Below, piece after piece: positions 5,145 to 64,000 of a stretch of DNA of 64,000 nucleotides. The first letter of the stretch is position 1. Every line of letters begins with the position of its first letter. Where the stretch lies: NCBI GenBank assembly GCA_038329965.1, contig JBBQNN010000006.1:26357-90356 (forward strand), given 5' to 3'. The notes below the pieces were generated by a model that saw nothing but the letters and a program-made list of their open reading frames with translations, was not told the origin of the DNA and ran no database searches. Source of the stretch: Mycobacteriales bacterium (lineage in GTDB: Bacteria > Actinomycetota > Actinomycetes > Mycobacteriales > QHCA01). A program made the position numbers and the translations under genes.

Positions 5145-5193
5145 GGTGCGTGCCCTTCGGATCGAGGAAGTGCCGGGGGCGGTCACGTGCCGA

Positions 5194-5954: not shown

Positions 5955-6551
5955 TCAGTGCAGGCGCCACGGTCCAGGGAGGTCGTGGGTCTGCTCGAAG
6001 TTGATCGTGTGGCCGGTCAGGCTGTCCGGCGTCACCCAGGTCACCCAGCCCCGGGCGCAGCCGGCCTTGGTGGACGCGTTGGGAAAGGCCGGCTGAGGGA
6101 ACTGCGGGTGCTGCACCTTGGTCGTCTGCGCGACGCGCCCGTCGGCAGCTTCGAGCACCCACGCCGGATAGTCGAAGACCACCGGCTTGGACCGGCACAC
6201 CAAGATGTCGGCGCTGGCCCAGTGCGTCGCGGGCGTTATCGGCCTGATGCCTGCTCCGGGCGCAACGTGGTCCCGGAAGGCGTAGACCGTGATGTGGATC
6301 GGCACGTCGCCGGTGCCAGGGCCGAATGCATTCGACGCCACGACGGCCTGCGTCGTGCCGAGCGGCACGGAGGGCACCTGCTGGGTGGCCGCCTGCGGCG
6401 GCTGCTTGGCAGCCGGGTCGGCCTTCGGGCCCCCACTGGAGCACGCGCTGAACAAGACGAGCACCGGCAGCAGGCAGGCGACGGTGCGCCGCAGCCGTCG
6501 ACCTTCGCGGGTGACCTGGCGATGCCTCTGGCCCGTTGTCTCGCGCGACAC
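5955..6551 (-). CDS. lipoprotein of unknown function
   Basis: GTG 6549-6551 preceded by AAGGAG at 7-nt spacing. Lipobox LVLFSAC|SSG. 198 aa. Confidence 0.65.
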   Translation of the reverse strand: MSRETTGQRHRQVTREGRRLRRTVACLLPVLVLFSACSSGGPKADPAAKQPPQAATQQVPSVPLGTTQAVVASNAFGPGTGDVPIHITVYAFRDHVAPGAGIRPITPATHWASADILVCRSKPVVFDYPAWVLEAADGRVAQTTKVQHPQFPQPAFPNASTKAGCARGWVTWVTPDSLTGHTINFEQTHDLPGPWRLH

Positions 6552-6663
6552 TCCTGAATCTCCTTTCGGTGGGTATGGCCGGATTCGCCGGCGTGAGCGG
6601 AGAGGCCGGGTGCCGTGGCACCCGGTCCTCTTCGCGGCTCTCCAGTGCGAGAGTCGTGCCGTT

Positions 6664-12228: not shown

Positions 12229-12322
12229 TGACCTGTCCCTCTATCTCTCGGTGATCCGCCTGATGAGTCAGCGCCGTCGAACCGCGGGAAGCGGACGCGG
12301 TGCATGCCGGAGAGATTGCGGG

Positions 12323-12351
12323 ACCGACCTTGCGGTGGCCTTCGGTCGACC
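12323..12351 (-). promoter_or_regulatory. three heptamer direct repeats at 11-bp periodicity (candidate SARP box upstream of the oxidase gene)
   Basis: Minus strand reads GGTCGAC cgaa GGCCACC gcaa GGTCGGT, 95-123 nt upstream of ATG 12228 and just downstream of the SARP stop codon. Confidence 0.3.
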
Positions 12352-12402
12352 TGTCGTCGGGGACTATTCGGACTTCCACCGTTGGTGCAGAAGCGCGACC
12401 GT

Positions 12403-14460
12403 TCAGCGTCCGGCGCTCGACCGAAATTCGCTCATGAGGACCGCCGGGGGTGGCGCCACGTCGGTGGCGCGAGCTACGGGCTGGCTCACGGGCTGCCGCG
12501 GGGACGGCCCGTCGGTGGAGCGGCGGGCCGGCCGGCTGACCAGCGGCGGGCCCTGGACGTCGGTCGCGCGCCGTCTCGGCTGGCCATCCTTGAGGGTCTC
12601 TGCGTGCAGGTTGATGATGAATCGGCGCGCCGGCGACAGGGTTTGCGCCAGTATGTGGACGACCCCGGGGTGCCGGAAGGCGAATGCCTGTCCGACGGTG
12701 ATCAGGAGGCGCTCTTCGACCAGCCGGTCCAGCTCCTCGGCGATGCCGTGCAAGTCGGTGCCCACGAGGCTGGCGAGCAGCTTGGGTTCGACCGGCTGGT
12801 CGAGTACGGAAGCCACCGACAGCAGGCGATAGGCCTGCGGGCCCAGATCCCAGCAACGAGTGAGAACCCACTCGCGCAGGTCGGCCGGAAAGGTCTCGGT
12901 CAGGTCCCGCCGCCGGGCCTCCAGGTAGCCGGCCACGAAAACCGGGTGGCCGCCGGTCGCGGTGTAGAGATCGTCATCGCCGAACTCGGACAGCTCGGCC
13001 GGCTCGAGCACGTCGAGATCGATGCGGAGATCAGGTCGCAACGAACGCACTGCCTCGCGCTGCATGCCGGCCCGGTCGCAGGTCATGATCACCGCAATCG
13101 GGAGCGTCGGGCACCGCCGCCGCAGATATCCCAGGGTGGTCAGCGTGTCGGCGTCGGCCCATTGCACATCGTCCAGCACGAGGATCGCCGGAGCCGCTGC
13201 TGCCAGTCCTGACGCAAGCTGCTCCATCGCGCGCATCCGGGCAAACTCGTCGAACGGCCGGTCTTGCTCGGATCGAACCAACAATTCGTCCAGGACCGGC
13301 AGCCCCTCGTCCGACCCACTGTCGAACATCGGCCGCAGCGCCATCGACAACGCCAGATAGGGCAAGCCCTGCTCGAGATCCGAACACCGGTTGGCGCCCA
13401 CTGCCACTCCGGCCGCGCCGGCAACCCTGTCCACGAGCCGGGTCTTGCCGATTCCCCGCTCCCCGGTCACCAACACCAGGGTGAATCGGCCGCCCAGCGC
13501 CGCCGCCACCGCCGACTCCAACTCAGCGAGTTCGGCCTTGCGGCCCACAAAGGGAACTCCGGCCGGCACATCGACACTGCCGGCCTGCGCAGCGGAACCC
13601 GATCCCAGCGCCGTCCCCGGCTTGCGCGGCGGCACGTTGGCGGTCTCCGGCAACCGTGGCAGCAGCGCCGCCACATCCTCGTGCCGCAGGATCGCGAGGT
13701 GCAGGGCCACCGTCTGACCCAACGGGTCGACGCCCAACTCGTCGGCCAACAAGCGCCGGCAGCGGTCGAAGGCCGCCAGGGCCTCCTCCTGTCGCCACAG
13801 TGAGTAGTAGGCGGTCATCAGCACCTGGTAGCCGGCCTCCGCCAGCGGCGCCAGCGCCACGGCGCGCTCGGCCAGCGTCAGCGCCGCGGCCGCCTCCCCC
13901 GTCAGCAACGACAACCGGCCCGCGTCGATCAGCACCTGCACCAGACGCTGCTGATACAGCGTCCGAAGATCCTCGGCCCACTCTGAATACGGTTCGTCCT
14001 CCAGAGCAGGCCCGCGGACCAGGCCCAGCGCCCGATTGAGCGTGGCCAGGGCCGCGGCCGGCTCGGCGCCCACGGCCGCCGCTACCAGGCCGTCGAACAC
14101 GTCCAGATCCACCTCCACCTGCGACACGTCCAGCCGGTAGCCGCCGGGCTCGGTCACGACCACCGAGCCGGACGCCCGGCCGCCGGGCTGCAGAGTTCGG
14201 CGCAACACAGAAATGTAGGTTTCGAGCGTGGCCACATGATTCTGTGGCAGCGCTTCACCCCAGAGGAGGTCCGCGAGCCGGGACTTCGACACGGCGTGGC
14301 CGCGCTCCGTCACGAGAATCTGCAGGACTTGCTTCGGTTTCAAACCCGGAAAGTCTCGACCAGCCAAAATGGCGGAGCCCGAAGACACCCGCAACTGGCC
14401 GAACACGTCAATGTGCAAACGAATCTCCCCAGGTCGCGCCCACCCGGAGCGACTCCCCAT
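12403..14460 (-). CDS. SARP/AfsR-family regulator (OmpR-type wHTH + BTAD + P-loop NTPase)
   Basis: N-terminal wHTH (KQVLQILVTERGHAVSKSRLADLLWGE). BTAD (YQVLMTAYYSLWRQEEALAAFDRCRRLLADELGVDP). Walker A (VTGERGIGKTRL). Confidence 0.85.
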   Translation of the reverse strand: MGSRSGWARPGEIRLHIDVFGQLRVSSGSAILAGRDFPGLKPKQVLQILVTERGHAVSKSRLADLLWGEALPQNHVATLETYISVLRRTLQPGGRASGSVVVTEPGGYRLDVSQVEVDLDVFDGLVAAAVGAEPAAALATLNRALGLVRGPALEDEPYSEWAEDLRTLYQQRLVQVLIDAGRLSLLTGEAAAALTLAERAVALAPLAEAGYQVLMTAYYSLWRQEEALAAFDRCRRLLADELGVDPLGQTVALHLAILRHEDVAALLPRLPETANVPPRKPGTALGSGSAAQAGSVDVPAGVPFVGRKAELAELESAVAAALGGRFTLVLVTGERGIGKTRLVDRVAGAAGVAVGANRCSDLEQGLPYLALSMALRPMFDSGSDEGLPVLDELLVRSEQDRPFDEFARMRAMEQLASGLAAAAPAILVLDDVQWADADTLTTLGYLRRRCPTLPIAVIMTCDRAGMQREAVRSLRPDLRIDLDVLEPAELSEFGDDDLYTATGGHPVFVAGYLEARRRDLTETFPADLREWVLTRCWDLGPQAYRLLSVASVLDQPVEPKLLASLVGTDLHGIAEELDRLVEERLLITVGQAFAFRHPGVVHILAQTLSPARRFIINLHAETLKDGQPRRRATDVQGPPLVSRPARRSTDGPSPRQPVSQPVARATDVAPPPAVLMSEFRSSAGR

Positions 14461-25374: not shown

Positions 25375-27831
25375 CTAGCGCACTATCGAAAGTTGCCTCG
25401 GGCTCGGCCGTCGGAGACGGTAGACCCCGGCGTCCTCGTTGTGGAACACCTCGGTCGCGAGCACCTTCAATTGAGGAGGGACCGGGAACGGCGGGCCGCC
25501 ACGGAAACTGGGGCGAGCATCGACAAGGAGGTAACGGACGCCATAGCGGAGGTACAGCGCGTCAAGGACGGCCGGTGTCGGGTTGGTGAAGGCCCGGTCG
25601 TTCAAGGCGGTCCGCTGCGGGAACGGTGAGGGAAGGCTCGGGTAGTACGCCTTGGCCCTGAGTGCGACGGCCAGCAACTCGTCGGTGTAGGACCAGCTCT
25701 CGATCAGGTATCGGCGCTCGCTGAATCCGGAGTAGTAGAACACCCGGTGGTCATCACAGCGCAAACGCTTGGTCCTCCTGTTGATCGATACCGCCAAGCA
25801 GTGGTTGTTCACCGCGACCACGTCGTCGGACCGAGTGTTCCCACGGATCCATTCCAGCGCGGCCATCAGCTCCGGCGTGACGTCGGGTCGTTTCCGATGG
25901 ATGTCTTCGGGAAGCACCTGCCTGCCATCGGTCAGTTGGGCCCTGACCGGTTGCCACAGCTTCAGCGGCACCCCGGCGAGGCACCCGCCGAGCACCATCG
26001 CCACGGTGAACGCCGCCGCCGCCGTCGGTCGCAGCCGCAGAGCGAGCGCCGCGAGCACCGTCGCCACGAGAGCCACCACGGCGAAGATCGCGTAGCGCTC
26101 GACAAATCGTCCCGGAGTGTCACCTCTCATGGTGTTCAGGCCCAATCCGAAGACCAGCACGGCGGCCGCCGCGGTGAGCGCCCCTACCGTCCACCGTGCT
26201 GCCCGGCGGGCCGTGATCCGATCGAGGAGCAGAGCCGTACCCCATCCGCCCAAGATCGCGCCCGCCGGCAATGCCATGACCAGGAACCAGTGCTCGCTGT
26301 GCGCCGGATCCACGACCAGCGACGACGCCGATATCCCGCCGATCATGATCCCGAGCAGAAACACCTGGGACACCCGGTTGCGAGGCACCCGAGCAAGTGC
26401 GAGTGCACCCAGGAACGGGGCGAGGAGTATCGCGAAAGCGAACGGTAGGCCGAGAACCTGCTCCAGCAGGGTGGGCCTGATGCCCGTGTAGTGAGGGTCG
26501 AGGAGCCTCCCGACCGCCGACATCGCCACGGTCTGCCACTGCAACAGGTGGTAGTCGAGCCGGACCCGGGCCGGTGACGAGCCACCGTACAAGGTCAGTT
26601 GGGCCAGCCCGAACGCGATCGCCGCGAGCGTTGCGCCGATCACCGGACCCACCCACAGTGGCCTGCGCCGGTGCAGGGCATAGGCGGCCGCGAGCCCGAA
26701 GCCGGCGGCCAACAGCGGCACGACCGGTAACTTCGCTCCCGCTGCCCCCACAAGCAGGATTGCCACTGCCAGCCATCGAATCCACCAGGCATTCGTCCGC
26801 ACGCCGTCCCGGAACTGGTCACAGGACACGAGTAGCAACGCGCAGAAGAAGAGCAGCCCGTACAAGTAGGTGGGGCTGTAGAACGCGTAGGCGCTGAAAC
26901 CGCCATAGGCGACCTGGGTCCGGACAGTGGAGATGCTCAGCTCGGCGGCCACGGTCCCGGTGAGCGCCGCGACCGGTCCCGCCCAGGGACGGCCCGACAA
27001 CCGGCTGGCCGTGAGCGCGAGCAGAACGGGAACCAACAGCAGCAGAGGTACGAGATACAGCCGGAACACCAGCCATGGCAGCTCGATACCGGTGATGGAT
27101 GCGGCCGAGGCAAGGTGACCGTAGAAGAACCAGTGGTACCTCTGCGTGACCCCGGACACGGAGGGGTCAGAGGGCGGGAAGTGGTGCATCGCGTCCGCCG
27201 CCCAGCCCAGCTGATTGCCCAGGTCGACACTCCAGGTGGCGGGGCCGGTCACCGGCCACGGTGACGCGGACCAATACCAGACGACCACGGCGGCGAGGGT
27301 GAACAGGCAACAGCCCGCGACGGCCCACGACCAGGTCGCGGGCAATGAGCAGGGCGCCTCCTCATCGGGCCCGACGGGCGCCGGTGCGGGCAGTGCCCGC
27401 CTACGCACGGACCGCCGCCGGAGCCATGGCACGGTAAGGGCGGCGACCACCGGCGGGTAGGCCCAGAGCAGGCCACGCGAGCCGGACCAGGCCGTCAGCA
27501 TCCAGGCCAGGACTTCCAGGGCGTAGCCCAAGGCCGCACCGACCGCGAACACGTACAGCGGGCCTCGCCGAGGGAGCAGGACCGCCGCGCAGAGGACGCC
27601 GGGGCCGGCGATAAAACCCGCCCAGTACAACTCGAAGCGGAACACGACACTCGCGGGCACGCCCGCGGCCAGCAGTCCCGCAGTGGCGATGCCGACGACT
27701 GCGATGGCCGGGGCTCCGACGGTCAGCGCGCGGCGCCCGCGGGCCAGCAGTCGCGTGGCCGGCGTGACTCGCGGCGGGAGATCGTGCGGCCGCCGTTGCC
27801 TGGCACGCACGTCGCGGACTTCGACCGTCAT
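25375..27831 (-). CDS. large polytopic membrane protein with C-terminal soluble domain (GT-C-like glycosyltransferase? tentative)
   Basis: Start at ATG 27829-27831 (MTVEVRD...). More than 12 hydrophobic segments, then a ~200-aa C-terminal domain. The 5' part of the 965-aa ORF is junk. Confidence 0.7.
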   Translation of the reverse strand: MTVEVRDVRARQRRPHDLPPRVTPATRLLARGRRALTVGAPAIAVVGIATAGLLAAGVPASVVFRFELYWAGFIAGPGVLCAAVLLPRRGPLYVFAVGAALGYALEVLAWMLTAWSGSRGLLWAYPPVVAALTVPWLRRRSVRRRALPAPAPVGPDEEAPCSLPATWSWAVAGCCLFTLAAVVVWYWSASPWPVTGPATWSVDLGNQLGWAADAMHHFPPSDPSVSGVTQRYHWFFYGHLASAASITGIELPWLVFRLYLVPLLLLVPVLLALTASRLSGRPWAGPVAALTGTVAAELSISTVRTQVAYGGFSAYAFYSPTYLYGLLFFCALLLVSCDQFRDGVRTNAWWIRWLAVAILLVGAAGAKLPVVPLLAAGFGLAAAYALHRRRPLWVGPVIGATLAAIAFGLAQLTLYGGSSPARVRLDYHLLQWQTVAMSAVGRLLDPHYTGIRPTLLEQVLGLPFAFAILLAPFLGALALARVPRNRVSQVFLLGIMIGGISASSLVVDPAHSEHWFLVMALPAGAILGGWGTALLLDRITARRAARWTVGALTAAAAVLVFGLGLNTMRGDTPGRFVERYAIFAVVALVATVLAALALRLRPTAAAAFTVAMVLGGCLAGVPLKLWQPVRAQLTDGRQVLPEDIHRKRPDVTPELMAALEWIRGNTRSDDVVAVNNHCLAVSINRRTKRLRCDDHRVFYYSGFSERRYLIESWSYTDELLAVALRAKAYYPSLPSPFPQRTALNDRAFTNPTPAVLDALYLRYGVRYLLVDARPSFRGGPPFPVPPQLKVLATEVFHNEDAGVYRLRRPSPRQLSIVR

Positions 27832-27965
27832 ATGACAGAAGGTAGTATCTGCCCCGTTCCCTCCCGGATCGCCTCCGGTTTCAATGCCGTAACAGTCGAG
27901 GGTCAACCTCGTACAGGCGTGCAGACAGGAACCCCCTAGACGTCGGTGATCGGCCCGGGACAGAT

Positions 27966-28620
27966 CTAGAAGCGTTCCCGTGCCGGCAGGGCAAGGTGGA
28001 CTGCGGCGGCGATGGCGGCGGCGACCAGGTTGTGGCCGGCGACGTCGGGGTGGTCCCCGTCCGAGCCCAGCAAGTCGGTGTCGTCTGCCGAGCCGTCCTC
28101 CTTGAACGCGGTATGGAGGTCGGCGTAGAGGTCCCGGCTGTTGAGCGACCCGCGCCAGCCGGACGGCCGGGAGGATGTTGATCAGGCCGCAGCCGTCCGA
28201 GGCGGCAGGTTGCGGCCACGGCAGGTCGAGGTCGCCACCGAGCATGGATCGTCGCAGGTGTCGCGACCGCATGACTCGGGGAGATCGCCACGTGACTGGT
28301 CCGATCGGGCAGGTAGCCCTCGAAGCCGGCCGGCTGCAGAGGCTCGGAAAGGACGTACAGCAGTCCGCTGGGCAACTCGGCGAGATCCGTGCGCAGGTTG
28401 AACGCCTCGCGCTGACGGTAGGCGATTTCGACCCGGTGGCACGGCGCCTCGGGCTGGCTCAGGGCTGCGTGGATCTCCAGCAGGCCATAGCTACGTCACT
28501 GCGCCAGGGCGAGGGGGCGACCGCAGCGCCCGGCGAGGTGATGGTCGCGGCTGTCGACGCCCACCAGGCAGCCGACCAGAATCTCGCCGCCGCAGTTGCC
28601 GCCCAGCCTGTTGGGTCCCG
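27966..28620 (-). pseudogene. possible decayed SGNH/GDSL-hydrolase gene (in-frame TGA plus at least 2 frameshifts)
   Basis: The frame ending at TAG 27966 reads ...LLGSDGDHPDVAGHNLVAAAIAAAV (block V DxxH-like). Upstream pieces read well in other frames (ELPSGLLYVLSEPLQPAGFEGYLP; ILVGCLVGVDSRD). By hand count, third-position GC is higher on this strand than for the overlapping + ORF. Confidence 0.35.
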
Positions 28621-52781: not shown

Positions 52782-53270
52782 GTGGCCGACCAGCCCGCGG
52801 CCCGGCCGCCGCTCCCGCCCCGGCCGCCGCTCCCGCCCTTCGACGAGGTGGGAGCGCTTGCGAAGGTCCAGGCCGCTGAGGACGCCTGGAACAGCCGCGA
52901 CCCCGAAAGGGTCGCCGCCGCGTACACACCGGACTCCCGGTGGCGCAACCGCACCGAGTTCATCACCGGCCGGCGGGAGATCGTCGCGTTTCTGACCGGC
53001 AAGTGGGAACGCGAGCAGGACTACGCACTCCGCAAGAGCCTCTGGGGATTCCGCGGCAACCGCATCGCCGTCCGCTTCCACTACGAATGGCACAACGACA
53101 GCGGCCAGTGGTGGCGCAGCTACGGCAACGAGACGTGGGAGTTCGACGACCGCGGCTTCATGAGCCGCCGCGAGGCCAGCATCAACGACCTGCCCATCGA
53201 AGAGACGCACCGCCGCATATTCGGTCCACGTCCACCGCAGGACCGAGACCACGTCATCCCGCTGCAATAG
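52782..53270 (+). CDS. DUF1348 (NTF2-fold) protein
   Basis: [30 protein letters not shown]...[18 protein letters not shown]-terminus carries an 18-bp tandem duplication. Confidence 0.8.
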
Positions 53271-53329
53271 CCAAGCCCCTACCCGAGGCGCGACGGACGG
53301 AGCCCACCGTGCACGCACAGGCGCTGTGT

Positions 53330-53535
53330 CGGTATCCGGTCAAGTCCGCCGACCGCGCAGGCGATCAGCTCGTCATCACCAAGCTCGACCGGCTCGGCCG
53401 CTCCCTCGAGCACCTCATCGAACTGTCCAAACTCCTGCGGACCCGCGGCGTGGACCTCGTCGTCATCGACCAGGGCATCGACACCGCTACCGCAGTCGGC
53501 CGGCTGTTCTTCCAGATCCTCGGCTCCGCAGCGGA
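53330..53535 (+). pseudogene. serine-recombinase (resolvase/invertase) internal fragment
   Basis: GDQLVITKLDRLGRSLEHLIELSKLLRTRGVDLVVIDQGIDTATAVGRLFFQILGSAA. The catalytic N-terminus and HTH C-terminus are absent. Confidence 0.6.
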
Positions 53536-53599
53536 TTGCGTGCAACGACCTACCGCGGCATCGCCGCCACGCTGCTTCGTTCTTAGCGAGCCTGGACCC

Positions 53600-54682
53600 C
53601 CTCGGCAAGGGCTGCGCCGAACCGCACACCCAGGCAGGACCGTCGGTGAGGAAGCTGACGATGCGGTAGGCGGCTTGCTCGACGAGGTCGGGTTCGGTGG
53701 CAAAGTTGAATCGCACAAAGCCTTCACCGCCGCGCCCGTGCCCGGGACCCGGTTGGGTCGCGACCCGATGGCGGTCGAGCAGCGGCTGGGCGGGATCCGC
53801 GTGTCCTGCCCGGAAGGGTCCAGCCAGGCGAGGTAGGTGCCTTGTGGCGGCGTCCAGATGTCGTGCACACCGGCGCCATCGAAGATGCGTCCGAGGGTGG
53901 CTCGTTGATCGGTGAGGTACTCGAGGGTGATCGCGAGCCACGCCTTGCCGTCCTGGAAGGCGGCAGCGGAGGCGGCGATGCCCAGAGGGCTGATGCCGGC
54001 GGTGGCTGCATCGGGCAGAGTTGCCCACGCAGCATGAAGCGTGGGATTCGTCACGGCGATGAATCCGAGGCACAATCCCGGGATGTTCCAGGCCTTGCTC
54101 GCGCCGAACAACGTTACCGAGTGGTGTCGGGTGCGCTCATCGATCTCCGCGTAGGGGGTGAATGCGACGCCGTATCGCAGCGGGGCGTGGATCTCGTCGC
54201 TGATGACGAACGCTCGAGATCCAGGACGTAGCCATCTCCGGTGCGCAGCATCGGGGTCTCGACGACTTGGTGCCCGGCGTCCTGGAGTCCTGGGGTCCAC
54301 CGAAAAAGCTGCGGTACGTAGGCGTGGGCACTACCGCCGGGCTGGCTTCCGGCGTGTAGAGGCGCGGGCTGTTCGAGATACCGCGCATCAACTGCGGAAG
54401 CAGATGGATTGCCTCGAGCTCCGTGCTCAGGCCGAGAGTGTCGGCCAACCACTTCGTCGCGATCTCGGGAAGGGCGGAACGAACGCCGGGGATCGGATAA
54501 CCGAAGGACTGTCGCTGCGCCGCGTCGCTGACCGCGTCGAGAACCGGTTGAGCGACCGGTAGGTCCATCTCCGCGACGGTGAGATCGATGACGTCTTCGT
54601 CGTACACCGGCCAACGCTTGGTCGCGCGGCCGCGGGAGCGGCCAAGATCCCAGTCGAGCGAGGGTGAGCGCCCATGCGTCAC
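53600..54682 (-). pseudogene. PatB/MalY-type class I/II aminotransferase (C-S lyase), at least 3 frameshifts
   Basis: The GTG start overlaps the isochorismatase stop (GTGA). Pieces in three frames: LDWDLGRSRGRATKRWPVYDEDVIDLTVAEMDL; VISDEIHAPLRYG...TLFGASKAWNIPGL; GEGFVRFNFATEPDLVEQAAYRIVSFL. Confidence 0.65.
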
Positions 54683-55221
54683 GCGGGTTGCTGAGCCTCG
54701 AGCGCATCGACGAGTTCCGCCGCCGTACATACCGTGCCGAGGCGGGGAAGCACGTAGCCGACAGCGAACTCGTGAGCCTCGGCGTCGAGTCCGCTCATCG
54801 CGTCCACCGGGTAGACCGTCGCGTAGCCAAGATCGTCAGCGACACGAGCAGTCGATTCGACACCCCAGTTCGTGACCAGCCCCGCGATCACGACGGTCTC
54901 GATTCCGCGGCGTCGTAGTTGCTCGTCCAGCTGGGTGGTTGCGAAGGCGCCGACGCTGCGCTTGACGAGCACGAGGTCATCCGGCCCGGGGTCGCACTCG
55001 GGGGCCAGCTCGCTACCAGGAGGTTGATCCACCAGGTTAGGTCGTTCCACGCGGACGAACACCACGAGCCCACCGGCCGCGCGCATCCGCTCGGCAAGCA
55101 TGGTGCACCGCGACAGAACCTGATCGCCGGTGTTGGGTCGTGTGTCGAGCGAAATGATGCGCGGCATCAGATCGATCAGGACGAGTGCGGTCCTTCGCGG
55201 CTTGATGCTGATCGTGGTCAC
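54679..55221 (-). CDS. isochorismatase-family hydrolase (Gly at the usual nucleophile Cys position)
   Basis: ALVLIDLM (Asp), VLVKRSVGAF (Lys), IAGLVTNWGVESTARVA where family members such as PncA have Cys. Confidence 0.85.
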   Translation of the reverse strand: MTTISIKPRRTALVLIDLMPRIISLDTRPNTGDQVLSRCTMLAERMRAAGGLVVFVRVERPNLVDQPPGSELAPECDPGPDDLVLVKRSVGAFATTQLDEQLRRRGIETVVIAGLVTNWGVESTARVADDLGYATVYPVDAMSGLDAEAHEFAVGYVLPRLGTVCTAAELVDALEAQQPA

Positions 55222-56116
55222 GACTCCGGAGCGTACGCACCGGGTCCGACATCAAATCCGGGACGATCGGGTTAGGGCGGCCTCGGCCTCGGCGGCGATT
55301 CGTTCGACGATCCGCGCGGCCGGCCCGATCGTATGCACGAGTCTTACCGACTGCCCGGCGTACAGGGCGAGCCCTTCGAGATCGCCGGCCATGCTCTGCA
55401 GGCCGTCATGGGCGGCGGCACCAAGATCGCACCACCCTGGACGCCTGTGACGAGCTGGTCGCTCGTTGGTGTTGAGGGTAGCTGGCTGGGTCAGTGGCGG
55501 GCGCTGGTACGGGCCGGCATGCCCACGCGTCAAGGGCGCTGCGCGTCCCTTCGGGACCGGTCTGCGGCCGGCTCTTGACCCGCGGGACCTCCGACCCTGG
55601 GCCGGGAACTGCGGGCAGAGCCACGGCCCTGCCCGTCTTACGCCGGTGTCGAGGATGATCCCCGAAACACCTACTCACCGCCGAAGACCCCCTCCCCGAC
55701 GACCTCAAGACCGCCCTCGCGCTCATCAACTGACGTGGGATGCGCACTAGGTTGGCCGAAGTCGGGTCTCAGCAGCGTCTTCCCCATCGGCATGGCCGTT
55801 GACGACTCACGACAGCGCCCCTGATCGGGCGACGCCCGCTGGTTCCCATCGCGGCGATGCTCACAGCGGCTGGTTCGCTGCTCGTCGCCGTCGGCACCAC
55901 CACGACGCCTGTCACCATCGGGCTGGTCGTGGCCGGGCTCGGCGTCGTTGGGCGGCCAGCGGGACCCACGTCCCCTGCCGGAGCTCGATCGGCTGGCCCG
56001 TACCGATGATGCGATGGTGCCAGGCTGGTGGTCGGTGCGAGCCGAGGCGAGCAAGGCGATCCGCCTGATACGGCAGGCGATCGACGACGAGTAGTCGCCG
56101 GCGACCGGATCCTTTG

Positions 56117-57488
56117 GGCTCTTGTGACTCATCCTTGGGTGGGTTCATGCTGCGGGGCGGGCGGGTAGGGGTGGGCACAGTCCGCCGAGGTCGAGCATGG
56201 CCAGAGCGACGAGGGCTTCGGGGGATCGGAAGCCGAAGGCGATGCGGGTCAGCAGCCGCAGTTTCGTGTTGACGCTCTCGACCCGGGCGTTGGACGGTCG
56301 GTGGGTGAGGGCGGCGTCGATGCCTGCGCGGTGCTAACGGATCGACCGGGCGAGGTTGACGAACGCCGGGAGCCGGCAGCGCCAGGCCCATTTCAGCCAG
56401 GCGTCGAGCAGTGTGATCTCCTCGGTGCCTTTGAGTTGGAACACCTGACGGAGTTGCTCTTTGACCGGGTACGCGCGGTAGAGCGGCGCGTTGGTCTTGG
56501 CGATCCCGGCAAGCCTGGCGGCCTGTCCTTCGGTGAGATCGCCGGGGTTCTTCCACAGCGCGTAGCGGGCGTTCTTCAGGTCCTTCGCCACCGCCTTCTG
56601 ACCGCCCTTGCGGGCCGCGTTCCACACCCCGCGGCGTACCTCGTCCAGTGCCTTGGTGGCCCAGGCCACGATGTGGAACGGATCCAGGCAGGCACAGCTC
56701 GGCGTTGGGGCACCGGTCAGCGACGACGTTGACGATCCACTCGGGCGCAGCGGCGCTGACCAAGGTGATCTGGGCGCAGCGCGCCTCACCGAGGCGGTCG
56801 AAGAATGATCCCCAACGTCTTCATGTCCCGGCCCGATGTGCCCACAGCGACACCCCGGTGTCGTGCTCCACCACGACGGTGAGGTACTTGTGGCCGCGCT
56901 TGTAGGAGATCTCATCGATCCCGATCTGGCGCAGGTTCGCGAACCGGTTGATGGTGGCCTCGGCGTCGGCGACCACCCGGGTCACGATCGACCCGACCGT
57001 GCGCCAGGCGATCCGCAGCAGATCCCGGACCGCGGACTTCGAGCAGTGCGTGACCAGCCACGCGGCGGTGTCATCGAAGGCGCGAGTGTGGCCAGCGCCG
57101 TGCCGAGCCCACGGGACCTGCGCGGCGATGACCCCATGCTCGGCGCAGTTCACCCGCCGGCGGGTCGGCCCCCACAAACGCCTGGATGGTGCCCAGGTCC
57201 AGCGCCCGCCAGCGCCGCCGGCCCGCACCCTGGTCATGGCCCGGACAACGCTTCCCACACCGGCCGCACCGGCCGCACCGACACGACGACGGCCTGCTCG
57301 GCCTCGTCGAACTCGACGCCCTCCACAACGACCTTGACCAACCCCAGCAGCCCAGCCCATAACCTTGCAGAACGCACGCCGTTCCCCCCACCCACGATTC
57401 CGGTCTTTGACAACGGGAACCGTAGGCGGGGAACGGCATGTGATCCGTCAAGGCAGGCGCAGGCACCCACGGATCAGTCACAAGAGCC
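56117..57488 (-). mobile_element. ISL3-family insertion sequence (1372 bp) with terminal inverted repeats and 8-bp target-site duplication
   Basis: IRL ggctcttgtgactcatcc (56117-56134) matches the reverse complement of 57471-57488 (ggctcttgtgactgatcc) at 17/18 positions. Flanked by atcctttg at 56109-56116 and 57489-57496. Confidence 0.85.
56145..57380 (-). pseudogene. ISL3 transposase, disrupted (several frameshifts, in-frame TAG and TGA)
   Basis: Pieces in different frames: LLGLVKVVVEGVEFDE; RCGRCGKRCPGHDQGAGRRRWRALDLG; VNCAEHGVIAAQVPWARHGAGHTRAFDD...IDEISYKRGHKYLTVVVEHDTG; DPFHIVAWATKALDEVRR; ARSIR*HRAGIDAAL...SNARVESVNTKLRLLTRIAFGFRS. Confidence 0.75.
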
Positions 57489-57513: not shown

Positions 57514-58035
57514 TCAAGCAGGCGCCGGAAACACCAGTCCGTGTCGCTGGCACAGTCGCTGGATGCTGGCGGGATCCGCCTGACTGCCGTAGCGCACCTG
57601 CTGCTCGTCCGGAGATATGCGACCGGTGATCAGCTCGTCGAAGAAGTGCTCGAAGCCCGCAGGCGAGATCATTTCGAGAATGCGGCAGGTGGTGTCGCCG
57701 GCGTTCCAGAACGTGTGCCACTGGTCGCGCGGCTTGAACACCAGGTCACCGACCTCGGCGTAGACCACGTCGTCGCCGAGCTGCGCTCCCAATCGGCCCT
57801 CGATCACATAGCTGTACTCATCTTCCCGGCCGTGCCGGTGCAGCGGCGCGCAAAGGTGACGTGGCGGGATAGGGTGCTCTACGAGGGAGAAGCCGCCACC
57901 GGATTCTTCACCCCAGACCATGAACCGCACCCCGCACCCGCCGAGGTCGCCGTGCTGCCCATCCCGCGGGCCGACGATGCGCGGCCCTTGGGATGCCTCG
58001 AAGCGCTGCTTCCGCTGGGCGCTCGACTCTTGCAT
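57514..58035 (-). CDS. cupin-domain protein
   Basis: Start at MQESSAQ (ATG 58033-58035, AAGGAG 7 nt upstream). HRHGREDEYSYVIEG...GDLVFKPRDQWHTF cupin motifs. Confidence 0.8.
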   Translation of the reverse strand: MQESSAQRKQRFEASQGPRIVGPRDGQHGDLGGCGVRFMVWGEESGGGFSLVEHPIPPRHLCAPLHRHGREDEYSYVIEGRLGAQLGDDVVYAEVGDLVFKPRDQWHTFWNAGDTTCRILEMISPAGFEHFFDELITGRISPDEQQVRYGSQADPASIQRLCQRHGLVFPAPA

Positions 58036-58433
58036 CGGACTGCTCCTTTCGGGCGGGGTGCGACCACGGGTACGACGAATATTCTGCCTCTGAATGGGAC
58101 AGCGACCGGCTCGGCTGCCGCGCCGCCACCGGAGGGAGTTGCTGGGTGGACGCACGGTTTCCGCACGACGTCGCCGATCAGTGACCACCACCCACCCTGC
58201 AGGGGTCAACCGCTGGCCAAACCTCAAGGCGCCGAACGCCGCAGCGGACAGCACACCAGGCCCAGTCCGGTCCCCAACTGCCGGTCTCCCCCTCTCATCC
58301 GACCGATCCGCCCGGCCCCGGCAGGAGGCCTCCGCCTCCGAGCCACCGGTCGCATTCAGCTCTCATCGAAAAGGACACGCACGGCGTTCTTGGCGACGGT
58401 GGACGACACGTAGAACGGCGGCTTCCACCGAAG

Positions 58434-60482
58434 TCAAGGGAACGGGTGCGGAAACGGATTGATTTCCTCGTACCGCAACGGGTGATTGCAATAGCCGAGC
58501 TGATAGGGCGTCTCCAACAGCCGGGGGAGGCCGTCGACCCGGCGATAGTCGTGGCCGAAAGTCATCGGCAAAGCGCCGGGGACAAGCACCTTCACGCAAG
58601 CGAACCCTCCGTGGCGGTGCTCGGGGGTGGTCTGGTCCACCACGATGACATCCATCCCGGCGCTCACGAGGCGGTGTATCACCTGTCTCAGGTCTGCCGT
58701 GAGGTCGTCGTGCTGGAACGCGCTTCCCACGGCCGCGCGCATTTCCGGAAGGGTGCGCATCCCCGGCGACCCGGTGAGGAAGTCCAGTCGAGGAAATACA
58801 TCCGCCACGCCGTACAACGTGGAGTGGTCGTGCATGCTGGCCACCAAGCTCGAGTCGGCGGCCAGTCGGTGCGCATGCTCGGTCTCACTGGGGAATGAGC
58901 GGACGCTGCTGAAGAGTATCGATCCGAGCTCGCCCAAGGCGTTGAGGACTGCATGTTCCGGGTCGAGGTGGGAGCCGGCGCAGGAGAGTGCCTTGAACGC
59001 ATCCCCGGCGTCGTGGGGATTCACCGCCATCGCCCATATGCACGGGATTCCCTGTTGCAGGGTGGTGTCGAAGGCTAGGACTTCGTAGCCGGTCTCGGCG
59101 GTGATGGCTGCCGCTTGCAGCGGTACGACACGGTTGTGGGCGCTGGACAGGTCGATGCGGGGCGCCGGCATCTGGGCATACCAGGTCATCAGGAAGGCGT
59201 CGCGTTCGGCGACCTCCAGGATCCCGTAGAGGATGGCTTCTTCCAGGCAGCCGCCGATGGCGTCGCCGTTCGACAACTCGTACAGGAAGGGCCGTTCGGA
59301 CGGTGTGTCGTGCGGCACGCGGTAGTAGGCGACGTCCTCGGGCACCAGGATCGGTTCGGCGTTGGCAAAGGAATATCCCCACACCCACCGGGTGGTGACC
59401 GTCTCGTCGAACGGTTGGAACGCGAACCCGGGCAACGCGTAACTTGCCGCCGGGTGCACACCGAGAGTGCGCGGATCCAGTGCCTGGCCGGCCAGCTCGG
59501 CGTAGCTGCCGCTCGTGACGGTGCGCTTTCCGCCTGGCTCGATTCCGCCGTAGCGTTCCAGTGCCTCCAGTATCGCTATCAGCTCACTGGTCCGGTAGCT
59601 GCGAGATCGGCCCCAGCCGAACTCGCCGTGCTTGCCGCGTCGTTGCGGCATCACCGCGGCCGCTATGGCGAGGCCACCCTTGGTGTCACGCCGGAGCGCG
59701 CTGATCAGCCCGGTTTCGGCATCGACATAGCCGTCGACGAGCTTGTCGAGCTCCCGTATCGTCGGCCGCACCCGGTAGGTGTCGGGAGTGGCTTTGGGAT
59801 GCGCGACGAGCGTGATCGCCGCGAGTTCGGCGGTGTCCGCCGGCAAGCTGCCGCACACCGGGCACAAGGGCTCCGGTAGGAACCGGTGCCGGCTGACCGT
59901 GAGGTTTTCGAGATCGAGATGCAACGTCGCGCGCCAGGTTTGTGCTGTGGCGGGGCCGGCCGTCAGCAGTGACACCTCGTGCACCACAAGGGCGGCGACG
60001 GTGTCGCTGGCCAGGCCGGTCAACCAGGACGACGGACGTTCGGCTATGGCCGGCCGGTGTTGATCCCACGCCGACGCGTTGCCCTCGGGGTCGGACCGGG
60101 CCCGCCGACGGCGAAGTTCCATACAGTGCAGGCAGCCGGCAATGCCAGGTCGTTCGAGAGGGCCGATGACGACCGTACCGAGCTCGGCGTGCACAGTGAG
60201 CCACGGCACTCCGCGCTCGGTGCATACCTTGCGGATGTCGGGATAGCCGGAGGTGCCCCAACTGTCAGTTGCGGCCACGAGCACAGCGGTGTCAGCCGGC
60301 AACCCTTCGGGATTCAACCCCGGCTGGCTGTGGACCGTGCCGCTCGCGGAAAGCGCCCGGCCGATTTCGCGGTGCAGGATGCCTTCCCCCAACACGGCAC
60401 ACGCGAATCCGCCCGATTCCGCACGGCGCGATTGTTCGGGATCGCGAATCTCAAGCATCGAGCAACAGCACCCGGACGACAT
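58434..60482 (-). CDS. fused E1-like cyclodehydratase domain + YcaO cyclodehydratase (azoline-forming type)
   Basis: N-terminal domain with GCLHC...CPVCG. YcaO landmarks SELIAILEALERYGG, WVWGYSF, EAILYGILEVAERDAF. C-terminus ...NPFPHPFP (PxPxP). The start may be ATG 60458 instead of 60482. Confidence 0.85.
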   Translation of the reverse strand: MSSGCCCSMLEIRDPEQSRRAESGGFACAVLGEGILHREIGRALSASGTVHSQPGLNPEGLPADTAVLVAATDSWGTSGYPDIRKVCTERGVPWLTVHAELGTVVIGPLERPGIAGCLHCMELRRRRARSDPEGNASAWDQHRPAIAERPSSWLTGLASDTVAALVVHEVSLLTAGPATAQTWRATLHLDLENLTVSRHRFLPEPLCPVCGSLPADTAELAAITLVAHPKATPDTYRVRPTIRELDKLVDGYVDAETGLISALRRDTKGGLAIAAAVMPQRRGKHGEFGWGRSRSYRTSELIAILEALERYGGIEPGGKRTVTSGSYAELAGQALDPRTLGVHPAASYALPGFAFQPFDETVTTRWVWGYSFANAEPILVPEDVAYYRVPHDTPSERPFLYELSNGDAIGGCLEEAILYGILEVAERDAFLMTWYAQMPAPRIDLSSAHNRVVPLQAAAITAETGYEVLAFDTTLQQGIPCIWAMAVNPHDAGDAFKALSCAGSHLDPEHAVLNALGELGSILFSSVRSFPSETEHAHRLAADSSLVASMHDHSTLYGVADVFPRLDFLTGSPGMRTLPEMRAAVGSAFQHDDLTADLRQVIHRLVSAGMDVIVVDQTTPEHRHGGFACVKVLVPGALPMTFGHDYRRVDGLPRLLETPYQLGYCNHPLRYEEINPFPHPFP

Positions 60483-62559
60483 AGGGCATCACCTGGTGCA
60501 CCTCCGGATCGTGATCGAGGGGAATGGCCACCGGCTGACGGCCACCGCGCGCCAGCCTCGCCACGAGTCCCGAACTGTCGAGGACCGGATCTGTAGGCAG
60601 CTCGCGAGCGTCGGCCGCAGCCGGTCGCGGAGGACGGGCCGGCTCTTCGGTCGGGGCATAGGCTGGCTCGTCGTTGACGCGGGCCTGATAGCAGAGCAGC
60701 AGCTGCTGTAGGCCGTCCTGCAGTGCCTCAAGGGCCGAAACGCCGCACCCGTACGCAGCGAAATCCTGCCCGAGGAAGCAGGCGAACGTCGGCACGCCGA
60801 GGTCGCCGGTGATGTCGTGGATCGTCACCAGTTGGCCGGTGGCGACGAGCATCGCTATGCAGTCGTCGACGTGTTTGTCGGGTGGGCGTCGGCCGAGGTC
60901 CACAAGTGGGAAAACCCGAGCAGGCGCCGCCTCGTACTCAGTGATTGTGAGCCGGCGGCAGTGCTGAACGAGCCCAGCGATCAGCGCGCCCGACCAGCTG
61001 TACGCGGCCGCCACACCGCAAGGGGTCGCGTAGGGAACGACGGCTGCCCGCAGCGCGGGGAACACCGCCGCCGCGGGTAGAAGCACGGGTCGGCCGTCGC
61101 TCAACCGCAGCGCCCGCATCCAGCCTTCGAGTTCGCCCGATCGGAGTTGGGCCAACGCGTGAGTGCGATCGTGGCCGGCCGGCAGCAGGGCGCGCCCGTC
61201 ACTGGTCAGCAGCCGGCCAGGGTCGACCATCAGTGAGCCGTAGCTGCCCAGTGCCAGCAAGGCAGTCCGGTAGCGGGCCGTGGCGAATTCGTGGCCGGCC
61301 CCCGCAGCGACCGGGCGGGGGGCATCCGCTCCGAGGAGGCTCACCGGATCGGAAACCGTTGTCCGGCTGACACTTAACGGAAGTTGGGTGATGTCTCGCT
61401 CGGTGATGTCTCCGAATATGCCCAGCTGGCCGTTCACAAGAGCGGCCGCTCGTTGGGAGAACTCTTCCTCGGGGAGCGGCTCTCCAGCGTCCAACGCGGC
61501 GATCCGGGCCAGGAACTCGCTCTCGCTCTGCGGTGTGACGGGTGCGGCGAAAGGATGCGGCAGAAAGTCGTGCAGCTCGCCGTGCAGGGTGTCCAGGACG
61601 ATTCGGTTCAGCCCAGGCCAGTCCGGCCGCCGGTGCGTACCAGTCGTGTGACGGAACAGGCTGTGGATGAGGTGATTCGCCACTATGGCCGCTTGCGTGG
61701 TGGTCACGTTGCTCGCTGAGCCAGCTTCCGCGGCGGCCGATCCGGCCCATCCCGGGCCTTGCAGGGCGATCCGCCGCTGCCATCCGGACCACCAGCCGGA
61801 CCCACTGCCGTGCGGACAACCGGCGGTACTCAGCCACGCCTCGTCGCCGGCAACCAAGGCGTGCACCAGCGGGATGCGGCGCTGGGCACAGAACTGATCG
61901 AGCAACCCGGCCCGAGACACCATCGGCCGACTCGACACGTGGGCGACCAGGTCGACGCCGGACAACCACCCGAGTAGCTCGGCTGCATCATCCGAGCCGA
62001 CGGCATGTTGCTCGAGTTGCTGTCCCGAATCCCGGCGCGGAGCGCCTTGCCGGGATGCGTTCCAGCGCGAGACGTCGGTCGGGCACTCCGCCGTGAGTAT
62101 GGCGTGCACAGTCGCCAACCCTGACCGGAAGCTCGCGTTGACCGCCGCAGTGAGAAGCGGACCTGCACCCACCACGGCGACGACACCGTTTCGATATTGC
62201 TCGAAGGTTGACTCAGCCGACTCGCGGAAGCACTCGATGAAACCGATCTCGGATCGATAGGTGTCCAGCAGCCCAGCCGCGAGACCGTGCGGTTGGCCGT
62301 CGCGGACCTCTCGCAGCACATCTGAGTCGAGCAACATCGTGACGATCTGCTCCACCAACGCCGCCCGCTCCGGGGGCAGCGCCGTCGTCAGTTGCGCTAG
62401 CGAGTAGCGGCCGTCCAGGTAGGGGGTGAGCCGCTCGATCCACCGGTAGATCGATTCACCAGCCAGCGAGATCGCACCCCGATGGGTCAGGAAAGCCGCG
62501 CCACGAAGTGTTTCGACCAGATGAGCGTCTGCCCGCATTGTCAACCGAGCCGTGCTCAC
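60451..62559 (-). CDS. RRE-like + E1-like (ThiF-fold) + divergent YcaO-like domain protein (leader-binding/docking partner)
   Basis: GTG overlaps the upstream stop (GTGA). wHTH-like LDGRYSLAQLTTALPPERAALVEQIVTMLLDSDVL. VAVVGAGPLL loop. C-terminal half has AGHEFATARYRTALLALGSYGS and DITGDLGVPTFACF. No PxPxP end. Confidence 0.8.
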   Translation of the reverse strand: MSTARLTMRADAHLVETLRGAAFLTHRGAISLAGESIYRWIERLTPYLDGRYSLAQLTTALPPERAALVEQIVTMLLDSDVLREVRDGQPHGLAAGLLDTYRSEIGFIECFRESAESTFEQYRNGVVAVVGAGPLLTAAVNASFRSGLATVHAILTAECPTDVSRWNASRQGAPRRDSGQQLEQHAVGSDDAAELLGWLSGVDLVAHVSSRPMVSRAGLLDQFCAQRRIPLVHALVAGDEAWLSTAGCPHGSGSGWWSGWQRRIALQGPGWAGSAAAEAGSASNVTTTQAAIVANHLIHSLFRHTTGTHRRPDWPGLNRIVLDTLHGELHDFLPHPFAAPVTPQSESEFLARIAALDAGEPLPEEEFSQRAAALVNGQLGIFGDITERDITQLPLSVSRTTVSDPVSLLGADAPRPVAAGAGHEFATARYRTALLALGSYGSLMVDPGRLLTSDGRALLPAGHDRTHALAQLRSGELEGWMRALRLSDGRPVLLPAAAVFPALRAAVVPYATPCGVAAAYSWSGALIAGLVQHCRRLTITEYEAAPARVFPLVDLGRRPPDKHVDDCIAMLVATGQLVTIHDITGDLGVPTFACFLGQDFAAYGCGVSALEALQDGLQQLLLCYQARVNDEPAYAPTEEPARPPRPAAADARELPTDPVLDSSGLVARLARGGRQPVAIPLDHDPEVHQVMPYVVRVLLLDA

Positions 62560-63956
62560 AGGTCCCTCGTTTCGGATCCCGCAGCGCTGCCGACGACGAA
62601 CTCACCGACGCTGCATTCGATGAAGGGGTCCCTGCCAGTGGCCTCGGTGAAAGCCGCGGCGTCACCGCCGCCGAGGGCACAGGGTGCCAGTCCCATCGCC
62701 GTGGCCACGCAGTACATGGTCTGGTACAGCACTCCCACGTGCTTGAGGATCAACGCGTACGCCATGGCCTCGTAGTTCCACATCACCCGACCCACCCGGG
62801 CGGCGACCACGATGAGCACCTGCGGCGAACCGTCCATGGCAAACTTGGCGACCCTAAGCAACCGGCGCACTGATTGATGGGACGCTTCTCGCACCAGGCG
62901 AAGCTGACGCTCGTGTGAGTCGTAGTGGTACATGCCTGCGGGCAGCCCCTCGGCGTGGCGAACCACCGGATACAGCTCGAGTTCGTAGACCGAGCCACCC
63001 GACGGATGCGGGCGGCTGACGTATTCCACGCCGCCGATGTCGCGGACTCCCCGAGTGCGGGAACACCGGTACAACAGCTCGCCAAGCTGATCGAGGGAAA
63101 CTGGATTGTCTTCGTCATGCGCTCGAATCGTGCGACGATCTTCAAGCACCGCGGTCAGCGTGGGATCGGTGCGGCGTAACAAGGCGAGATCGGGTTCGGG
63201 CAGGTCGATTGCCGGCCCGGGATACGGGTCCGGCCGTGCCGGCAGCGGGTCGAAGCTTCCCTTGGCCCAAGACGTCCGGCCGAACCCGTCTGCCGACCCG
63301 CCCTGCCGCCCTGACCTGCTGCGCTCGTGGAACCACAACTCGTGGGAACTCCACTGGCGAAGCCGGAACTCGGTGTCCTCAGCACCCCGTGTGGGCACCA
63401 TCAACTCCGCCCAGCGCAGATCATGCAGCACCCGCTCGACCACGTCAGCCGGCAGGTCGTGCACCGCGCGGCCGTCACGCCAGTCGCCCGACCCACCGAG
63501 GGCCGCTAACACCAGCGGATCACACACCCGCACGGCGCACCAGGAACGTGGTGACTCCAGCAGCATTTGGTGCCCAATCCGGCGCAAAGCCGCGAACCGC
63601 GAAAACACTAGGTCGGACTCCGGGCGCACCGGCGGTGGCGGTGGCGGTCGCCGTGGATGTATGGAATACAGCTCTCGGTCTCGATCGGCCACCGTGATCA
63701 TCAGCCAGCCACCGGTCCGTAGATCACTAAGGAACCGAAGGAGCCGGCCGATGCCCTCGCCGTGGCCCACACCCAGGGCGCACAATTCCGCTTCGCTGTG
63801 CGGCCGCTCGGCGAGGCAGCGCAGTACAGCATCTAGAGCAGTGTTGAACGGGCCAAACGATTCCGAGTACGGCCATGCCACCAGCCGGACTTCGCCGTCG
63901 GGTGACACCACAAGGTATACGCCCGGACGGAGGGCCAGCAGCTCTCTCAAGCCCAT
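62556..63956 (-). CDS. SagB/ThcOx-type FMN-dependent azoline dehydrogenase with long N-terminal extension
   Basis: C-terminal nitroreductase-like half (TIRAHDEDNPVSLDQLGELLY, RPHPSGGSVYELELYPVV, APCALGGGD). ~230-aa N-terminal extension containing a PPPPPPP run. Confidence 0.85.
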   Translation of the reverse strand: MGLRELLALRPGVYLVVSPDGEVRLVAWPYSESFGPFNTALDAVLRCLAERPHSEAELCALGVGHGEGIGRLLRFLSDLRTGGWLMITVADRDRELYSIHPRRPPPPPPVRPESDLVFSRFAALRRIGHQMLLESPRSWCAVRVCDPLVLAALGGSGDWRDGRAVHDLPADVVERVLHDLRWAELMVPTRGAEDTEFRLRQWSSHELWFHERSRSGRQGGSADGFGRTSWAKGSFDPLPARPDPYPGPAIDLPEPDLALLRRTDPTLTAVLEDRRTIRAHDEDNPVSLDQLGELLYRCSRTRGVRDIGGVEYVSRPHPSGGSVYELELYPVVRHAEGLPAGMYHYDSHERQLRLVREASHQSVRRLLRVAKFAMDGSPQVLIVVAARVGRVMWNYEAMAYALILKHVGVLYQTMYCVATAMGLAPCALGGGDAAAFTEATGRDPFIECSVGEFVVGSAAGSETRDL

Positions 63957-64000
63957 GTCATCTGCGCGGCGGCAATTCTTGGCGAGCTGCCGATCTTGCG
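63947..64000 (-). CDS. 3' end of an upstream operon gene (17 codons visible, truncated by window edge)
   Basis: The frame reads ...RKIGSSPRIAAAQMTWA* with TGA 63947-63949 overlapping the SagB-like ATG. Identity unknown. Confidence 0.4.
   Translation of the reverse strand, partial: RKIGSSPRIAAAQMTWA

Follow-up and report, generated by a model that had tools for sequence, protein, structure and literature searches.

A minimal A-E-F-G gene cluster of probable thiopeptide ancestry, predicted to make a linear thiazole peptide

The 64,000 nucleotide (nt) stretch of DNA analysed here, referred to below as the window (GenBank assembly GCA_038329965.1, contig JBBQNN010000006.1; positions 26,357 to 90,356 of the forward strand; Mycobacteriales bacterium), ends in an operon for a peptide that is made by the ribosome and modified after translation (RiPP). 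Three minus-strand genes, here called E, F and G, encode a SagB-type dehydrogenase and two proteins of E1-like/YcaO ancestry, and the gene for a precursor peptide, A, was found directly before them, beyond the window end. An earlier note made from the sequence of the window alone had read the locus as an azole-installing RiPP operon, and the core of that reading was right. On balance, we favour the interpretation that this is a minimal A-E-F-G cluster for a linear thiazole peptide, i.e. a linear peptide containing azol(in)es (LAP) or thiazole/oxazole-modified microcin (TOMM), that derives from a thiopeptide cluster and is functional. The identities of the enzymes and their domains, taken by themselves, are close to certain. 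As neither a LanB dehydratase nor a pyridine synthase gene was found in the window or in the 6.9 kb upstream of the precursor, and the precursor core includes a single Ser, the product is likely a linear penta-thiazole peptide and not a thiopeptide.

The part of the operon in the window consists of three open reading frames (ORFs) on the minus strand, at 62556-63956 (E, 466 amino acids (aa)), 60451-62559 (F, 702 aa) and 58434-60482 (G, 682 aa). The GTG start of F shares bases with the stop codon of E in a GTGA overlap at 62556-62559, and the F stop codon (60451-60453) falls within the start region of G (ATG 60480-60482 or 60456-60458). The Joint Genome Institute (JGI) gene call for G begins at ATG 60456-60458, which gives a product of 674 aa. 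The three are real, translationally coupled genes. The earlier note had reported their coordinates and overlaps exactly, and had chained to them a fourth ORF, ending with TGA at 63947-63949, through which the operon would run off the window at 64000. That candidate was examined using two contigs obtained by an exact look-up of E, namely L001, a 13 kb JGI metagenome contig that is 99.9% identical to window 58013-64000 (window position 64000 being L001 position 7104), and L002, a Logan contig that is 100% identical to window 59671-64000. In L001, a TGA 18 nt past the window end, with its bases at 19-21 nt, closes the supposed fourth frame, which is a 24-codon stop-to-stop stretch, and this upstream TGA terminates the precursor gene. 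The fourth ORF was therefore rejected as a gene. Alignment to L001 identifies 63957-64000 (minus strand) as the 3' part of a 62 nt non-coding spacer between A and E, and A itself lies wholly outside the window. No stable RNA fold or attenuator hairpin was found in the A-E spacer (z = +1.18), and no terminator was found after G.

The precursor is a 62 aa ORF (L001 coordinates 6897-7085; sequence MSLDMLVGPDVADLPLDVFELENEGFAVESLTADHGFTMPDGRLSTKTFGFCCNCCVVCDGP) located 62 nt upstream of E, with a Shine-Dalgarno-like AGAAGGG sequence 5 nt ahead of its ATG. The gene ends 19 nt past the window end, and a precursor beyond position 64000 had been anticipated. It is present in L001, L002, L059 and L060, and an identical peptide is encoded in at least four independent samples. 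The only NCBIfam match of the precursor is to NF033399 (thiazolyl_GetA; thiomuracin/GE37468 family thiazolyl RiPP peptide), whose cutoff of 29 bits it exceeds with 51.7 bits, and a 58 aa version from a Pseudonocardiales metagenome-assembled genome (MAG; PZS31266.1) carries the NCBI name 'GE37468 family thiazolyl peptide'. Public annotation already flags the precursor, and the high novelty previously assigned to the locus is not justified. The core, STKTFGFCCNCCVVCDGP, contains five Cys (positions 52, 53, 55, 56 and 59) and one Ser (S45), with no Ser C-terminal to the Cys block; an adjacent precursor with a leader and a Cys/Ser/Thr-rich core, a trait of LAP clusters, is in this way present outside the window. 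The leader retains an Lx4F recognition motif as L14-P-L-D-V-F19, and recognition of this leader motif by the RiPP recognition element (RRE) of TbtF/PbtF has been defined experimentally (PMC12710340). The part of the leader next to the core has diverged, and its junction with the core no longer shows the canonical 'GHGM.E.GA|S'. A search of the six frames of the window with the leader hidden Markov model returned only noise (E 0.93), and no second precursor or leader-like peptide was found there.

G (58434-60482, minus strand) encodes a fused E1-like/YcaO ATP-dependent cyclodehydratase that scores above the cutoffs of both TIGR03604 (1e-104, 350 bits; cutoff 219) and TIGR03882 (3e-40, 138 bits; cutoff 36.9). 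The E1-like domain (TIGR03882), which includes a CxxC...CxxC pattern, covers residues 93-260 (59703-60206, minus strand), and the catalytic YcaO domain covers residues 291-682 (58437-59612, minus strand), matching positions 1-377 of 377 in TIGR03604 and PF02624 at 1e-81. The C-terminal end of the protein is PFPHPFP. A YcaO cyclodehydratase with an E1-like domain, as found in G, is a LAP trait. The best sequence match for G in the PDB is TruD, with residues 33-681 of G aligning to residues 124-781 of TruD. As the alignment begins only at TruD residue 124, G is without the N-terminal RRE, and the loss of ~100 N-terminal residues (the RRE) from the fused enzyme is a trait of F-dependent cyclodehydratases.

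F (60451-62559, minus strand; GTG start) is predicted to be an Ocin-ThiF-like leader-binding scaffold, known as the TOMM F protein, composed of an RRE, an E1-like domain and a degenerate YcaO domain that would be non-catalytic. TIGR03693 ('ocin_ThiF_like') matches F at 1e-40 and 139 bits, well short of the 562 bits that mark an equivalog. A winged-helix RRE occupies residues 3-84 (62308-62553, minus strand), which align to the crystallised PbtF RRE (8t19) with E 4.5e-15. The GTG start is supported because this N-terminal alignment to PbtF residues 3-84 is gapless. An Ocin-ThiF-like protein with an N-terminal RRE is a further trait of F-dependent cyclodehydratases, and both the 8t19 and the TIGR03693 matches place F in this role. 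Residues ~123-345 (61525-62193, minus strand) were assigned to an E1/ThiF-like Rossmann domain from the alignment of F with G, from MccB/ThiF/MoeB folds and from PF00899 in homologs. Residues ~377-680 (60520-61431, minus strand) form the degenerate YcaO-like domain, predicted inactive, which was detected by PF02624 (1.3e-11) and by hhalign to the YcaO domain of G (99.7%). An AlphaFold2 model of F (predicted local distance difference test score (pLDDT) 87.7, predicted template modelling score (pTM) 0.83) has full-length LynD and TruD as its best fold matches in the PDB (E ~4e-25, template modelling (TM) score ~0.55), followed by MusD, MccB and stand-alone YcaOs.

When alignments of 49 F and 47 G orthologs were compared using hhalign, 506 columns matched, pairing F 123-680 with G 24-616, at a probability of 99.7% and E 2e-25. 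As this profile match is colinear over both parts, F and G are paralogs across the E1-like and YcaO regions, and residues 1-122 of F have no counterpart in G. The catalytic Glu motifs were found in G only; the G motifs EALERYGG and E..ERDAF are replaced throughout the whole F family. The two losses are complementary, with the RRE gone from G and the catalytic motifs gone from F, and only one of the two fusions, G, is predicted to be an enzyme. The earlier note had described two distinct E1-YcaO fusions as maturases; their shared ancestry stands, but F, whose acidic YcaO motifs are lost, is predicted to be a leader-binding scaffold. It is very improbable that both YcaO proteins are active in different chemistry, such as cyclodehydration and thioamide or amidine formation. 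Although F has a YcaO domain detectable with PF02624 and its homologs are called 'YcaO-like family protein' by NCBI, other residues stand throughout the F family in place of the acidic motifs that G and YcaO enzymes conserve, the C-terminal PxPxP motif is missing from F, and the characterised HcaF, TbtF and TclI proteins are non-catalytic leader binders (PMC4603692, PMC12596934). In the literature searched, no explicit published statement of a degenerate YcaO domain in F proteins was found, and such a domain is implicit in Pfam and NCBI names. The packaging into two fusions, which had not been matched to a characterised pathway, corresponds to the F-protein-dependent cyclodehydratase of TbtE/F/G, PbtE/F/G, TclN/I/J and HcaB/F/D, for which the role of the F protein is established (PMC4603692, PMC7470986, bioRxiv 10.1101/2023.10.23.563616). 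By analogy with HcaF, TbtF and TclI, F would bind the leader and G would need F.

E (62556-63956, minus strand) encodes a SagB/ThcOx-type azoline dehydrogenase dependent on flavin mononucleotide (FMN), with matches to TIGR03605 (1e-43, 148.8 bits; cutoff 78.4), PF22767 (ThcOx; 2e-17) and PF00881 (2e-13). A ThcOx-type N-terminal domain (PF22767) was located at residues 117-218 (63303-63608, minus strand) and a SagB-type nitroreductase-fold FMN domain at residues 288-457 (62586-63095, minus strand), the latter matching positions 2-173 of 173 in TIGR03605. An FMN-dependent azoline dehydrogenase is an optional trait of LAP clusters. The motifs quoted in the earlier note (GCLHC, CPVCG, ILEALERYGG, the C-terminal PFPHPFP, RPHPSGGSVYELELYPVV and CALGGGD) are all found in the ORFs, and the profiles it had named (TIGR03605, TIGR03882, TIGR03604 and PF02624) gave the significant matches reported above.

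To place the cluster among its relatives, one genome per species was scanned with an alignment of F, and gene calling and clustering then followed for the resulting 51 actinobacterial loci. In most of these the layout is A-B-C-D-E-F-G, comprising A, LanB-N (~900 aa), two Lant_dehydr_C proteins, E, F, G and a protein of 111 aa. This is the layout of a thiomuracin-type thiopeptide cluster, as Pfam annotation of L054 and L058 confirms. In the cluster studied here, A stands directly before E-F-G. The closest homologs of F, 52-54% identical, are from metagenomes (L054, L055 and L056). L054 (ENA accession ERZ25039550, contig_81629; coordinates 1354-12094), with an F protein 52% identical to that in the window, is a thiopeptide cluster that is complete and has its genes in the unusual order A-E-G-B-C-D-F, whereas L055 and L056 share the layout LuxR/LAL regulator - A - E - F - G - GNAT and have cores of ...SSACLLCCPPS... 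and SADICCVICSQPSRTS. Neighbour-joining trees of F and of G agree, both giving ((L055,L056),L054),window nested among thiopeptide clusters, and the LanB-less state is therefore derived. The cluster appears to descend from a thiomuracin/GE2270-type thiopeptide cluster minus the Ser dehydratase and pyridine-synthase genes. The start of the L054 locus also carries another ThcOx-type dehydrogenase gene, which is divergent.

A second clade of LanB-less A-E-F-G clusters was found in actinobacterial MAGs (L003, coordinates 7983-14174; L004; L007, coordinates ~8500-13916). The cores in this clade are very Cys-rich and Ser-poor, e.g. CSCEGPCCHFCACPCVCC, with ECF (extracytoplasmic function) sigma or LuxR regulators and Pyr_redox_2 proteins nearby; L003, which has full 10 kb flanks, has one of each (ECF sigma, LuxR and Pyr_redox_2) as neighbours. 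LanB-less loci consequently fall in at least two lineages, one comprising the window with L055 and L056, the other L003, L004 and L007. It is plausible, though we put it forward tentatively, that thiomuracin-type clusters have shed B, C and D, possibly repeatedly, while keeping the leader/RRE/azole module, to give an unrecognised family of functional A-E-F-G clusters making linear poly-thiazole peptides with bis-thiazoles, from which a housekeeping protease would remove the leader. A further locus, L018 in Halostreptopolyspora alba (NZ_RJMB01000021.1; coordinates 8846-9969), was considered as a fellow minimal cluster and rejected. It has a thiopeptide-type precursor with a one-Cys core, followed by approximately the first 250 residues of LanB and then the last ~80 residues of E, with F and G at full length, and is a decayed thiopeptide cluster. 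A separate precursor family (VDKLRLDLxxLEVExLD...GMGHxxxE...SC...), often in tandem copies, was seen in L008, L014, L015, L017, L033 and L053, from Pseudonocardiaceae/Egibacteraceae MAGs, where the precursors sit upstream of F-G-LanB clusters without an adjacent E homolog.

Homologs of LanB-N, of Lant_dehydr_C/pyridine synthase and of the '111-aa' protein were not found by tblastn in the 64 kb window or in L001. The queries were ~100 proteins (~45 of them LanB-N) from 40+ related thiopeptide loci, with L054 as a positive control, which was matched; inspection reached 6.9 kb beyond the precursor on the upstream side and covered 58 kb of the window on the other. Lant_dehydr Pfam annotations were likewise absent among the L001 genes. 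The cluster has a thiopeptide-type leader (NF033399, 51.7 bits), but in the window and L001 a pyridine synthase ([4+2], TbtD/TclM type), a split LanB dehydratase and a two-Ser core are missing, as are the heterocycloanthracin (HCA)-type precursor and the HcaF equivalog above the TIGR03693 cutoff that mark the HCA family. In the DNA covered, the cluster lacks three features that define thiopeptides and carries the genetic features of LAPs. Pyridine formation requires two Ser-derived dehydroalanines, and with a single-Ser core the class-defining pyridine cannot form. This bears on the possibility of a split thiopeptide cluster, with the dehydratase and cyclase encoded in trans, which would fit a leader of the thiomuracin/GE37468 family (the NCBI name agrees), the fluid gene order in the clade (A-E-G-B-C-D-F in L054) and an upstream view that ends at 6.9 kb. 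We consider it quite improbable, as S45 is the only Ser and none lies C-terminal to the Cys block, whereas the LanB-positive relatives compared have at least two Ser in the core, neither a LanB nor a Lant_dehydr_C homolog was found within 58 kb to one side or 6.9 kb to the other, and the C-terminal part of the leader by the core has diverged.

The cluster was also assessed for signs of inactivation. Of the family-conserved columns (conserved in >=95% of relatives), 60/63 are kept in E, 31/33 in F and 87/88 in G, a retention within the range of complete thiopeptide clusters. F deviates at R448G and V698L, and G at V323T. Several observations weigh against a functional cluster with a linear product. 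E deviates at three positions that are invariant in 36 relatives, L118F, S276T (RRSIR to RRTIR) and H350R, and Leu stands at the position of PbtF Phe68, the counterpart of a TbtF residue that matters for leader binding. Protease, transporter and immunity genes were not found next to the operon on either side (upstream in L001, downstream in the window); the earlier note had placed any export or immunity genes beyond 64000. Dehydratase and cyclase genes may be present elsewhere in the genome, given that inspection covered 6.9 kb upstream of the precursor, and the LanB-less status of L055 and L056 is unproven, as these contigs stop ~0.8-1 kb past G. Finally, gene debris at 53279-57470, 1-5 kb downstream of the cluster, fits a decaying region. 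It includes an ISL3 transposase in two pieces, HTH (helix-turn-helix) at 56821-57360 and DDE at 56334-56915, a piece of an aminotransferase gene at 53365-54300 that covers only profile positions 179-313, and a piece of a resolvase gene, within 52940-53836, that covers only profile positions 62-122 of 145. The debris suggests that mobile elements were once active, and that deletions took place, beside the cluster.

Alternatively, the operon may be what is left of a thiopeptide cluster, silent or without function, that lost its dehydratase and pyridine-synthase genes by deletion and is now decaying. The operon is nested in a thiopeptide clade beside the complete cluster L054, and L018, in which a truncated E adjoins what remains of the LanB N-terminus, shows that decay of this kind occurs; the insertion sequence (IS) and pseudogene debris, the lack of protease and export genes by the operon, the three changes in E and the loss of the leader-core junction all point the same way. 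However, the three enzyme genes are full length and coupled and keep 94-99% of the conserved columns, the core is still Cys-rich, which is unexpected under drift, the identical precursor recurs in at least four independent samples, and other lineages, with F proteins 37-54% identical, have the same layout of four genes. None of the deviations is obviously inactivating, though E is slightly atypical, and a relic is in our view unlikely.

For a functional A-E-F-G cluster, a route to the product can be proposed by analogy with TbtE/F/G, TclI/J/N and HcaB/D/F, from which leader binding, the order of steps, the number of azoles, and expression and function are all inferred. The RRE of F would bind the leader of the 62 aa precursor via L14-x4-F19, and F, through its E1-like and dead YcaO-like domains, would dock onto G and present the core. 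The RRE-less G would then use ATP to turn the five Cys into thiazolines, and the FMN dehydrogenase E would oxidise these to thiazoles, with a total change of -100 Da and two bis-thiazoles arising from the CC pairs. In thiopeptides, the pyridine synthase removes the leader. Because this enzyme is absent here, an unlinked protease encoded elsewhere would have to do so.

The closest genomic relatives are thiomuracin/GE2270/GE37468-type clusters, and the TbtA + TbtE/F/G and PbtA/PbtF modules share the same three enzymes in the order E-F-G, a homologous RRE (8t19), an NF033399 leader and Lx4F. Unlike the thiomuracin type, the cluster described here has no B, C or D between A and E or within reach, a core with one Ser, no GA|S junction, and an F protein reaching only 139 bits on TIGR03693 (cutoff 562). 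Microcin B17 (McbBCD) resembles the predicted product class, being linear with mono- and fused bis-azoles from adjacent Cys/Ser, but is made by discrete B, C and D proteins with no F protein, and has an unrelated leader and its own export and immunity genes. LynD and TruD (PDB 4v1t, 4bs9), the top structural matches for the F model, also combine RRE, E1-like and YcaO domains; there, leader binding and catalysis reside in a single polypeptide, whereas here F is predicted to bind and G to catalyse. Heterocycloanthracin clusters (HcaB/F/D) are also LAP-type, and their only universally conserved enzymes are the dehydrogenase, the Ocin-ThiF-like F protein and an F-dependent, N-terminally truncated cyclodehydratase (PMC4603692). 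However, they belong to the Bacillus cereus group (Firmicutes) and have a Cys-Xaa-Xaa-repeat precursor that is often encoded elsewhere, and the enzymes and leader described here lie much nearer to the thiopeptide systems of actinobacteria than to HCA. In micrococcin biosynthesis, TclI is likewise an RRE-bearing Ocin-ThiF-like scaffold that offers the core in turn to the YcaO enzyme and the dehydrogenase, but AlphaFold2 models give TclI an RRE and one C-terminal domain and TclJ a short E1-like domain only (bioRxiv 10.1101/2023.10.23.563616), and TclI/TclJ/TclN belong to a full thiopeptide pathway. Only two orphan cases of F proteins outside HCA and thiopeptide clusters were known in 2015 (PMC4603692), and no characterised one was found in the literature searched. 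Each protein falls in a described family, and the cluster, itself uncharacterised, branches off from a known system and reveals no new enzymology.

Upstream of the precursor, L001 encodes an ECF sigma factor, a YCII protein, a DUF6069 protein, two methyltransferases and a GNAT protein. Downstream of G, the window contains genes for a cupin, the split ISL3 transposase, an isochorismatase, the aminotransferase and resolvase fragments, a DUF1348 protein and a CMD-family protein. The cupin gene (57514-58254) was rejected as a cluster member, as it is separated by a 180 nt gap and is not conserved at this position, where relatives have GNAT or unrelated genes. Further away, a polytopic membrane protein of 965 aa with no Pfam match is encoded at 25375-28272 (minus strand), and the T-richness of its coding strand is the probable cause of the AT-skew spike (0.29) at 26-28 kb. 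Two large proteins unrelated to the RiPP operon, both probably secreted, are encoded at 1057-4347 (minus strand; 1096 aa, with rhamnogalacturonan-lyase-like and fn3 domains) and at 6664-12228 (minus strand; 1854 aa, with multicopper-oxidase and fn3 domains).

If functional, the cluster would offer a short path, of four genes, to a linear penta-thiazole peptide that is new and stems from an uncultured Pseudonocardiales bacterium, and a natural test of the thiopeptide leader/RRE/azole module working alone. The TbtE/F/G module already serves as an engineering tool. The cluster would equally be a clean example of duplicated cyclodehydratases dividing binding (F) from catalysis (G). Its enzymology is unsurprising, and its interest lies in genome mining and RiPP evolution, where a functional cluster would show a change of RiPP class, from thiopeptide to LAP, by gene loss. 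Should thiomuracin-type clusters indeed have shed B, C and D in the way proposed, they would provide a natural case of one RiPP class becoming another.

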